DNA of 63,770 bases, the filler included, from Octopus bimaculoides (taxonomy: Eukaryota): assembly GCF_001194135.2 (NCBI RefSeq). It is 6 parts of 6 records of this genome, joined end to end, with 100 filler letters (N's around TTAATTAATTAA, not from the genome) between each part and the next. Parts side by side here need not be neighbours in the genome. Positions count along the whole stretch, not along the records: positions 18,509 to 33,507 come from NC_068986.1; positions 33,608 to 48,932 come from NC_068996.1; 4 more parts are not named here. The stretch is one strand, 5' to 3'. The notes beneath the pieces were generated by a model. The model searched no databases. It was not told where the DNA came from and saw only the letters and a program-made list of their open reading frames with translations. Position 1 is the first letter of the stretch, and the number at the start of each line of letters is the position of its first letter. Both the position numbers and the translations under genes were made by a program. Shown piece after piece: positions 27,648 to 47,617 of this stretch.

Positions 27648-27757
27648 ATGCTTAGTCCTGAAACTTTCAGTATGCGTCCATATTTGTATGTCTTGTGTTT
27701 ACAGCTGTGTATTAACCAACAAGTTCATTATGCATTTCAAGCCACATATCATAATAG
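27648..27757 (+). CDS. Candidate first coding exon of an unnamed small gene (MLSPETFSMRPYLYVLCLQLCINQQVHYAFQATYHN, ends in phase 2)
   Basis: Acceptor cccttacag at 27619, in-frame upstream TAG at 27624, ATGs at 27648 and 27672, donor AG|gtattg (weak at +5). The phase matches exon 32430. Confidence 0.35.
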
Positions 27758-28249
27758 GTATTGCTTCTGTTTTCCTTGAATTAGTAGTTGTTTCGCCAGT
27801 TTATTTTAAATCCATGTACTTTCTGTTCTTTTCTTTATGAAATACAGATCATGGTTGTCACATTTATTAGAAGACACATTGTTTTCTAGTGACATTAGGT
27901 AACATCTGCTTGAATACGCACGAATTTCTAGTCCGTTACTATCCCAGTCTATTGGAGTCAAATCCTAGAGTATTGGCGCCTAAATGAAGTTCATGCCTAT
28001 GCGTATAAACCTTGTTTACTCTTTCTCTTTAAAGATGGTGCCATAACATTCAGTGTCCTGTAACCTCTCAGCTTTATCATGTTTTCTTCTGATATATTAT
28101 GATTACTAGGGAGTAAAATCGTGGTGTCACGACATAATTACTCATCCGTATGACAAGCTATGAAATGAGAACAAATGGAAAATCTAATGCAAGTAGATCT
28201 ATAAGAAGCACAGAATCATGCAAAATGTCTACCGCCCGCCTAAACCAAA

Positions 28250-29900
28250 CGTCATATTTGTACCGTTCGTTCCAGAAAATGCAAGCACCACAGTACAGTG
28301 GGAACGCTATTTCACTACGAAAAGATGCTGGAAATTTAATTCCACAACATATTTAGTGCAGGGAAGCATCGGGGTCTTCTATATTGAATACGCCGGAGGA
28401 AATGAACTTGCGTTAGTCTCTCCGATAGAGAAATATGATTTTGTCCCAGAAGGTAGATTGCTTAGTGGGTTCAGTTACTACAACACCAGGCCTTTCGGCA
28501 CGCTATCATATATTTTTGTATGTCTACGAGTTGTGTACATCTTTCAGGCAGTGCCGATGGTGTTTTTGATAAATTGCCATTTCGCAAATGTTCAGATCTT
28601 ACGTTATGTGAGACCTTCTAGAACATGGATGAGAATTTAATGATCCTGAGTGTCACTAGCATCGAAGGCACTCCCTGTAGACAAATAAATATTTACGCTT
28701 AGACTGGTGAAGGCGGATATATTTCTTCAGCTGTTTAGCTCTCTTCAGGTGAATTCGCCACATAATAGCACGAAGGGGTGACTGGTATGGCGCTTTGGTT
28801 CATATCGGTATTTTACGACATAATCCGATAGAAATCGTGTCTAAGAGCTTCTCAAATGCAAGCAGTTCCATGTCGACAAATAGCGATCTCAAATATGTCA
28901 AAGTGAACCAAGGCATGAAGGTCACGTGTACTAAGCGGTAACTTCGTTTGTGCATAACTTCACCAGGTTTGCTCAGAAACCATAAATTTACAATATGCAC
29001 ATACGTGTCAAACAGGCCGAAAATATGCGACTTGCGCTGAGTAGGAAGAGCAGTGCAACAGAAGAACTGGTCAAGCGGCATTTGTCGGAACAACCTTCAA
29101 TGACCGGTGATAACTATTAGATTTTAGCCAATAGATTATTGTGCAGCAGGGTAAATTATTAATTATTGAAGAAATGAGAAGATTAGAATAGCGTTTTAAA
29201 AAAGATATCTCGACCCACGTTTATTGGTAAAATGATATTCAGTCAGTTGTCTTTACATAAATAGGAGATCCTGCTATCAGTGTTAAAATGTATGTTCATA
29301 GACACTAATGATTTGATGGGCCCGAGTGGAAAATGTGGGACGTTGATTGAATGACGCAGTCAGGCATATAAGGGTGCGCTATGTCGATGTGCAATTCAAT
29401 TCCACCCAGATTAATGAGGTTTACCCGATTGTTTGGCGCAAGATTTGAACTAAAGTCGTCGGATATTAATATCTGCTATGGCAGCTTAATGCAAGTCTCA
29501 GAGAAGATACATAGTGTTGCCAAAAGCTAGTTATAGCAGCTAAGCTATGGTCAGCAGGCGATTGATCATACAAGTGGAAAATCGCCTGATGTAGATGCTC
29601 ATTTTACGAGCCTGATGGATATTCGGAAATCGTTTGCCATTCTTCGTATATTTTCTGCGTGTTTAATTTCTATGTGCATACCACAAGCTTCTTTGCATTG
29701 CAGACGTCTATCACCACAGGCTGAAGACTAAAACTATTCCCATATAGGAAATGCCGCTCGATATTTTGTCATTTCAATATTAATAGTTGCCCAACGCTTT
29801 GTTTTATGATTGTATTTGAAGGAAAACTTTAAACATCGATGCCATATTTCACAATTATTCAGAAGATATTCAATTGACTCAAGATTCTCCTGATTATTTT
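28250..29900 (+). mobile_element. Very old, heavily decayed non-LTR retrotransposon (APE endonuclease to RT N-terminus, RTE-like)
   Basis: Ordered degenerate motifs across frames: SG...GV (28546), INIYA*T (28686), GEF (28749), EPDG..E (29608), TIPI (29735), ISIL (29770). Confidence 0.45.
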
Positions 29901-29964
29901 TAATTATATTTTCTATGTAATTTCTAAGAGTCGATCAGTGCAATATTATGAATCCCTCTGCGAC

Positions 29965-47000: not shown

Positions 47001-47411
47001 ATTTCAGTTTATTTTACCTTTATGGTACACCTGTTCTTCTGTGCATTAAATTCAATTGATAATCTAGTGATGTGCACAATTCTTCTATATCAAAATTTTG
47101 TTGCATACCCAATTGAATATTAGCTGATGATTCATTTTCTATGGTAATGTTTAAACAAAATTTTAATATTTTTACATTTTGCTCAGTTTACCTGGATTTA
47201 CCTGTAATTAGAGTCACTTTGAGACAAAAATTATGCAATAGAATTGATTAAGAACCCTTTCTTCAATTATGTTCTAAATATCACATTAATATGTTGAGAA
47301 ATAAAAAAGTTACAGGTGTATAATGAGACTAGTCTAAATTCATGATTATTTTAGAATTTAATTGAAACTCATGATGGGTGTATTTTGGTCAGAAATATAG
47401 TAACGAAAGGG
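44063..47411 (+). mobile_element. piggyBac DNA transposon with a pseudogenised transposase
   Basis: TTAA at 44059-44062 and 47412-47415, perfect 14-bp TIRs CCCTTTCGTTACTA. Transposase from ATG 44336 with an acidic N-terminus, LSVDEGMV, FFDRFF, YMGGVDQL and a C-terminal Cys-rich domain (CREC...CAFCKVAVCRVGCFTTFH); several frameshifts and stops. Confidence 0.95.
45208..45478. mobile_element. hAT (Charlie-type) MITE nested in the piggyBac transposase; second copy at 45769-46039 is probably an assembly duplicate
   Basis: 15-bp TIRs CAG[A/G]GGTTTTCAAAC and 8-bp TSD GCCTAGGG; removing it restores QHGLGYDVV. Confidence 0.93.
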
Positions 47412-47474
47412 TTAAAAGAAAAAAAAAATTTGTTTTTGAAATGAATAAAGTTTTGTATATGTCATACATTCCAG

Positions 47475-47617
47475 ATAACGGCACTGTTGTTAACCAAATC
47501 TCTGAACAAAATGTACTGAAAACGAAGAATCGAATATGTTCCAAAGAAGAGATTGAAAGAAAAAAATTAGAAGCCTTAAAAAGACGAAATTATAGATCAA
47601 AGACTAGAAGAAAATGA
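47475..47617 (+). CDS. Candidate terminal exon (D-NGTVVNQISEQNVLKTKNRICSKEEIERKKLEALKRRNYRSKTRRK*), with an RPA32C-binding-motif-like segment resembling the ETAA1 C-terminus
   Basis: Acceptor tcatacattccag|, phase 1 matching exon 37654, open to TGA 47615-47617. The motif resemblance is from memory, not from a search. Confidence 0.6.

Follow-up and report, generated by a model that had tools for sequence, protein, structure and literature searches.

Three exons of Octopus bimaculoides end an uncharacterized gene whose product is plausibly ETAA1-like

Within the 63,770-nucleotide stretch of Octopus bimaculoides DNA analysed here, spacers included (hereafter the window), three exons of the plus strand are the end of the RefSeq gene LOC106874047, and its full-length product, predicted to be mostly disordered, is probably an ETAA1-like, RPA-docked activator of the ATR kinase. 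According to this model the protein would dock on RPA via two short C-terminal helices and likely switches on ATR via an N-terminal Trp motif. The five-exon gene of the original prediction combines real 3' exons of a plausibly ETAA1-like gene with 5' exons that likely do not belong to it.

Gene structure in the window

The window contains 28 runs of N, ten of which form five identical 100-nt spacers (N44-TTAATTAATTAA-N44 each) that start at positions 18409, 33508, 48933, 56543 and 62382; the pieces between them measure 18.4, 15.0, 15.3, 7.5, 5.7 and 1.3 kb. The gene as proposed consists of five exons (27648-27757, 32430-32497, 35147-35185, 37604-37654 and 47475-47617) with canonical AG/GT sites and compatible phases, spliced without stops into 136 residues. 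Coordinates, phases and translation were all reproduced: the four introns run GT..AG without exception, the phases are 2,1,1,1, and the spliced length of 411 nt corresponds to 136 aa plus TGA; in exons 2-5 both other frames contain stops. The accompanying caveat about an artificial join was also correct, for a spacer N44-TTAATTAATTAA-N44 at 33508..33607 (no strand) separates the proposed exons 2 and 3. Exons 1-2 lie on one piece (18509-33507) and exons 3-5 on the next, with the exon 3 acceptor 1539 nt into the latter.

Exons 3-5 form the 3' end of the LOC106874047 coding sequence, as its final three coding exons. They correspond to residues 133-208 of its protein XP_052829686.1 (208 aa), with 76 of 76 residues identical. 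Exon 3 (35147..35185, plus strand; internal, 39 nt, phase 1-1, AG/GT) accounts for residues 133-144 and the first half of an acidic motif of the RPA70N-binding type; exon 4 (37604..37654, plus strand; internal, 51 nt, phase 1-1, AG/GT) accounts for residues 145-161 and the second half of the motif, a predicted helix. Exon 5 (47475..47617, plus strand) is the last coding exon and closes with a TGA stop; all of its 47 residues are identical to the RefSeq C-terminus. It contains an ETAA1-like C-terminal motif (47522..47590, plus strand), a candidate RPA32C-binding helix that is matched by Pfam family PF15350 and predicted to be helical. In a pattern scan, a candidate polyadenylation signal ATTAAA was found on the plus strand at 47801..47806, and another candidate, AATAAA, at 48551.

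Going upstream, the divergence between XP_052829686.1 and the 136-aa model begins exactly at the exon 3 acceptor, and the Arg codon of XP_052829686.1 at this point fits a phase-1 intron ending at 35146. A protein search with the last exon, which had been suggested as a check, returned two proteins among six candidates: XP_052829686.1 (100%) and XP_029648779.1 from O. sinensis (LOC115222616, 543 aa; 79% identity over the last exon). The search thus did find octopus relatives, but both are unnamed and no vertebrate ETAA1 was returned. Because exons 3-5 are identical to a RefSeq protein and conserved in O. sinensis, they represent more than a chance splice fit, and RefSeq models in two species generally imply transcript support. 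The gene is hidden in a limited sense: exons 3-5 are already in RefSeq, but only as part of an uncharacterized protein, and the records of LOC106874047 and LOC115222616 both carry this label, without function or Pfam domain.

The interval 47400-47800 is represented in 20 of the 24 sequencing runs listed (7 studies), none of which is recorded as RNA. In 18 of these 20 runs its share is 0.80, compared with 0.798 expected if only the sequence from the exon 5 acceptor onward were present; as a sign of expression these shares are a hint only.

The picture is different for exons 1-2, neither of which is supported as part of LOC106874047. At the proposed exon 1 (27648..27757, plus strand) an open stretch is present; its donor is weak (-1.3 bits, according to a crude splice matrix built on approximate frequencies). 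Open phase-2 first exons that start with ATG and are of equal or better quality can be formed with 35 distinct donors of this 15-kb piece, the exon 1 donor being one of them. The proposed exon 2 (32430..32497, plus strand) is exon-like and has a strong donor (6.3 bits by the same crude matrix); three candidates of such grade, exon 2 among them, occur on both strands of the window, and 45 open, phase-1-ending exon candidates on the same strand pass the weakest scores of the model. Compared with each of five relatives, the 59-residue peptide of exons 1-2 scores like its own shuffles (22-272 of 300 shuffles as high), and such an N-terminus was not found upstream of exons 3-5 in any database protein, whether in the octopod relatives or in the protein searches. 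No second copy of exon 1 or exon 2 occurs within the window. Pfam scans covered 39 ORFs of the piece 18509-33507, namely 38 from a list of 95 plus one other, and gave weak unrelated matches only; an ORF overlapping exon 2 in another frame matched no family.

Taken together, exons 1-2 do not exceed chance expectation; exon 2 may be genuine, as part of some other transcript, but no result connects it with exon 3. Judged by sequence, exons 1-2 likely either splice in frame by chance or belong to another transcript, and an artificial join separates them from exons 3-5. The claim of a single five-exon gene is not supported, as exons 1-2 are unlike the N-termini of the relatives and lie across this join. 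A real 136-aa product in which exons 1-2 serve as alternative first exons would account for the canonical sites, the frame that stays open over five exons and the strong exon 2 donor, and the piece order may even be real if the pieces are placed along a chromosome. Nevertheless, we regard such a product as highly improbable, given the join between exons 2 and 3, the lack of any database protein with this N-terminus, and the chance frequency of equally good first exons.

Full-length relatives and the missing N-terminus

XP_052829686.1 and the proteins from O. sinensis (543 aa), O. vulgaris and Argonauta (570 aa) have in common an upstream region that is longer than exons 1-2 and unlike them; the full-length product of the relatives measures about 520-570 aa. 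In the window this upstream region was not found (tblastn best E 0.32), and part of the missing N-terminus could hide in the 3021 N bases upstream of exon 3. A phmmer search against 1.84 billion representatives gave three matches, all octopod, adding GAB1604591.1 from Argonauta hians (570 aa) and a 195-aa fragment from O. vulgaris. The Argonauta model lacks the last exon, and the final helix is not comparable there. In the cluster of the O. sinensis protein there is an O. vulgaris model in which the gene is fused with 7B2. For both O. bimaculoides and O. sinensis, our gene and 7B2 are recorded on contigs of equal length, which fits orthology.

Wider homologue searches returned the query only, among 7881 and among 46 candidates; these blank results are weak evidence, because the word index also missed the Argonauta protein. 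No homologue search returned a vertebrate or other non-octopod sequence. Matches in the ESM Atlas were limited to unnamed arthropod clusters, with values of 0.89-0.90 for the complete sequence and at most 0.79 for residues 39-180, and are not usable; sequence searches of the PDB, including those with the C-terminal motif, the N-terminal part and the acidic motif, gave nothing relevant.

The start of XP_052829686.1 corresponds to O. sinensis residue 334, after the Trp motif described below, and the protein contains no Trp. Taken at face value, O. bimaculoides would make a short form without activation domain, e.g. the 208-aa product, that competes for RPA and does not activate ATR. It is also in keeping with such a form that identity between XP_052829686.1 and the O. 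sinensis protein is no more than 79%, whereas 7B2 is nearly identical between both species over the shared length. Fast divergence is, however, usual in disordered proteins, and three related species keep the long N-terminus. A 5'-truncated RefSeq model is moreover the simpler reading, because this assembly has many gaps, with 6511 N and five artificial joins over 64 kb. We consider it very unlikely that the short form replaces the full-length protein, and only slightly less unlikely that the octopus makes an RPA-docking short form (208-aa or 136-aa) beside the full-length activator, which would be an RPA-bound brake on ATR signalling, a competitor derived from an activator.

Predicted structure and conserved islands

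The following residue numbers refer to the O. sinensis protein unless stated otherwise. The AlphaFold model of the 543 residues, whose input was a shallow alignment of four rows, has a mean pLDDT of 46 and a pTM of 0.18, with 366 of 543 residues below 50. It contains no folded domain; what it does contain are isolated helices at residues 7-40, 79-84, 101-134, 161-182, 252-261, 338-346, 422-434, 478-493 and 519-541, the last reaching a pLDDT of about 91 over residues 521-530. Disorder-promoting residues make up 73% of the sequence, and the full-length protein is predicted to be mostly disordered.

Conservation between O. sinensis and Argonauta is concentrated in islands: identity amounts to 22/31 around a Trp (residues 82-112), 8/17 at residues 160-176 and 21/27 in the acidic motif (468-494), but only 91/321 outside these three. 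W96 is the sole one of the three O. sinensis Trp that is kept in Argonauta, and no S/T-Q or S/T-P site other than SQ85, SP100 and SQ346 is shared by the two. The Trp belongs to a W-x3-S-P motif (W96 in O. sinensis, W75 in O. vulgaris, W32 in Argonauta). Helix 161-182, located 65-86 residues beyond W96, has hydrophobic residues at 163/167/170/174. The order of the motifs in the 543-aa protein is W96, F471, C517. Two further acidic helices, 252-261 and 338-346 of the AlphaFold model, could be extra motifs of the RPA70N type.

Comparison with ETAA1

The resemblance of the last exon to the C-terminal motif of ETAA1, as claimed in the original prediction, recurs in the Pfam analysis: PF15350 (ETAA1) is the only family matched, over profile positions 793-815 of 818 (E 0.0036, 16 bits), and the match lies at the end of the profile and at the end of the protein. 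The score is below the curated cut-off of 27 bits, so the ETAA1 profile search supported the likeness but not at the level of the family threshold; none of the five whole proteins scanned matched PF15350. In a control scan of 49 other ORFs, one unrelated match appeared at E 0.0034, which is why an E of 0.0036 taken alone is not far from chance. The ETAA1 family had been named before the Pfam test. The N-terminal 142 residues matched no Pfam family.

ETAA1 binds RPA at two sites. RBM1 contacts RPA70N through W600, D606, D607, L609, L610, Y611 and A613, and RBM2 binds RPA32C (PMC10479964); the human RPA2-binding motif includes S894 (PMC8053108). By sequence, the last octopus helix matches the C-terminal motif of the RPA32C type, with the weak score given above, and may bind RPA32C (window positions 47522-47590). 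The serine of this motif is not followed by Pro in octopus. Octopus S518 is the presumed counterpart of human S894. On this assumption the two RPA motifs are about 47 residues apart in octopus (F471-S518), as opposed to about 294 in human (W600-S894; PMC10479964, PMC8053108).

The acidic motif, split over exons 3 and 4, has the form F471-x5-T-D-E-L-L. Its F471/T477/D478/L480/L481 show the spacing of human W600/D606/D607/L609/L610 (PMC10479964), and three of the seven RBM1 residues are identical (D, L, L); human W600, D606 and Y611 are replaced by Phe, Thr and Val/Ala in octopods. The 30-residue motif matched no Pfam family, and a PDB search retrieved no ETAA1 entry, even though human RBM1 is represented there by 8JZV. 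The earlier claim of an RPA70N-type motif thus fits in residue spacing only. If it applies, the acidic helix would bind the basic groove of RPA70N. When the sequence was shuffled, the two motif patterns recurred at rates of 1.9% and 0.1%, and both rates are optimistic, since the sequence was already known when the patterns were relaxed.

The third element of ETAA1 is its ATR-activation domain (AAD). Such domains are disordered and combine a critical Trp with a predicted coiled coil (PMC7994790); human ETAA1 requires F106 and W107 for ATR activation and carries CDK sites at S95 and S111 (PMC6891097). The octopod W96-x3-S100-P is spaced like human W107/S111 (PMC6891097). Downstream of the Trp follows an amphipathic helix, 161-182, as a candidate counterpart of the AAD coiled coil. 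The equivalent of F106 is Ala in Octopus and Gly in Argonauta, and the octopod protein has a conserved SQ 11 residues before the Trp. Trp96, Ser100-Pro and helix 161-182 may together form an ATR-activation domain, which might be tuned by CDK phosphorylation at SP100 and by ATM/ATR phosphorylation at SQ85. The original prediction had found no FWD..SP-type motif; none is present in the window, but a conserved W-x3-SP exists in the full-length relatives, and it was missed because that part of the gene lies outside the window. Of its two readings, the first (the 3' portion of a divergent ETAA1-like gene in an invertebrate) agrees best with the data; the second, a minimal adaptor devoid of an activation domain, probably arises from the artificial join, and a compact ETAA1-like ATR activator appears likelier.

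The octopod protein of about 520-570 aa resembles ETAA1 in overall design as well: both are disordered chains without folded domain (as predicted by AlphaFold for the octopod protein), and the candidate AAD, RBM1 and RBM2 elements of the octopod protein follow the ETAA1 order. We propose that the octopod gene likely works like ETAA1; we claim functional likeness and leave family membership unconfirmed because the Pfam match is below the cut-off, F106 is absent, and no relative outside octopods was found.

Other RPA-binding and ATR-activating proteins

The same gene could instead encode a different disordered scaffold for RPA binding, not orthologous to ETAA1, with similar motifs gained independently and another role for the Trp motif. 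The missing F106 equivalent, the restriction of the family-level match to 23 residues and the lack of homologues outside octopods are compatible with this, as is the occurrence of the RPA2-WH-binding motif in several unrelated proteins (PMC8053108). SMARCAL1, TIPIN, XPA, UNG2, RAD52 and RFWD3 possess short basic helices of the same general class (class: PMC8053108).

The folded domains of SMARCAL1, TIPIN, XPA, UNG2, RAD52 and RFWD3 are absent from the octopod protein, with no Pfam match at E up to 10 and none in the model; each of these proteins has a folded catalytic or binding domain. The sequence likeness of the last octopus helix to their motifs is presumed, and the PDB gave no match. Independent gain would also have to explain three motifs in the order of ETAA1 and the fact that the two motifs comparable with Argonauta are the best-conserved islands. 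It is an unlikely origin for this gene, and an ETAA1-like activator remains the reading that we prefer.

Disordered proteins often contain charged helices and acidic stretches, and the ESM Atlas gave only unnamed arthropod clusters at no more than 0.90, as would be expected if the motif likenesses were fortuitous and the gene were unrelated to RPA or ATR. However, a family named in advance matched at the right end, and the motifs are selectively conserved; we give this possibility hardly any weight.

TOPBP1, the other ATR activator compared, also has a disordered AAD, in which a critical Trp is accompanied by a predicted coiled coil (PMC7994790); in disorder and Trp it resembles the octopod candidate. 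The TOPBP1 AAD is stimulated by ATM phosphorylation within the AAD (PMC6891097), and the conserved octopod SQ85 would allow similar stimulation. In contrast to TOPBP1, the octopod protein has no BRCT repeats (Pfam, AlphaFold), and its candidate AAD lies near the N-terminus, in combination with RPA motifs.

Discussion

Exons 3-5 are already in RefSeq, whereas the functional reading seems new to the literature searched. In that literature we found no paper joining ETAA1 with octopus or mollusc. No invertebrate ETAA1 orthologue appeared among the matches listed, by titles and the beginnings of abstracts, although the alignments of the founding papers may show invertebrate sequences. ETAA1 is placed 'in vertebrates' in passages of PMC8377203 and PMC6891097, and PMC7994790 speaks of 'metazoan cells', with no invertebrate gene named in the passages concerned. 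Passages of PMC6563053, PMC8210275, PMC6990542, PMC5418189, PMC10202453 and PMC6238597 do not mention its range outside vertebrates.

An ETAA1-like octopod gene would be a modest extension of a known pathway and not a new mechanism. If true, it would provide a function for unnamed cephalopod genes. It would also offer a naturally compact version of the activator, with closely spaced RPA motifs and one AAD aromatic, in which the residues needed for ATR activation could be tested. If the octopod gene is an orthologue of ETAA1, the two-activator design of ATR control, TOPBP1 plus an RPA-tethered activator, would date back at least to the bilaterian ancestor.

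Repeats and transposon remnants

The last intron of LOC106874047, the candidate ETAA1-like gene, carries a broken piggyBac-like transposase on the plus strand (44078-46810), situated ahead of the last exon and recognized by two Pfam matches to PF13843 (E 4e-22 and 3e-22) and by a zinc finger (PF13842, E 7.7e-8). The transposase is split by an element of about 285 nt with 23-nt inverted ends (45201-45485), which occurs a second time at 45762-46046. In the same region, positions 44935-45234 are exactly duplicated at 45496-45795, with a spacing of 561 nt and a gap of 10 N between the copies; this duplication is likely an assembly artefact. 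Three minisatellites also lie in this intron, with periods of 29 (38923-39607), 26 (41135-41311) and 138 (43594-43867).

Elsewhere in the window, a remnant of a DDE_3 (Tc1/mariner-type) transposase is found on the minus strand (567-986; Pfam E 4e-7). Four further ORFs, at 8736-9576, 12145-13438 and 14895-15242 (all minus strand) and 18510-18770 (plus strand), had no match in a Pfam search; judging by visual resemblance, they may be retroelement remnants.

Exons proposed upstream

The ATG of the first exon in the original prediction is preceded, at a distance of 28 nt, by a strong acceptor that scores 6.3 bits. The resulting 138-nt stretch (27620-27757, +) is open in a frame other than the predicted one, as is the proposed second exon downstream (32430-32497); the two may be exons of another transcript.

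Gene models of octopod relatives

In the Octopus vulgaris model CAI9734746.1, the ETAA1-like gene is merged with 7B2 (PF05281), and the last helix is missing; this model is likely a misprediction that misnames its cluster. In the Argonauta model GAB1604591.1, which is without the last exon, residues 269-393 are near-exactly repeated at 399-523, and this internal duplication of 125 residues causes one acidic helix to appear twice. A second O. vulgaris protein, CAI9732623.1, is a fragment of 195 aa that shows 47% likeness to the central part of the ETAA1-like protein and is located on a separate chromosome-size contig; it is probably a pseudogene or partial duplicate.
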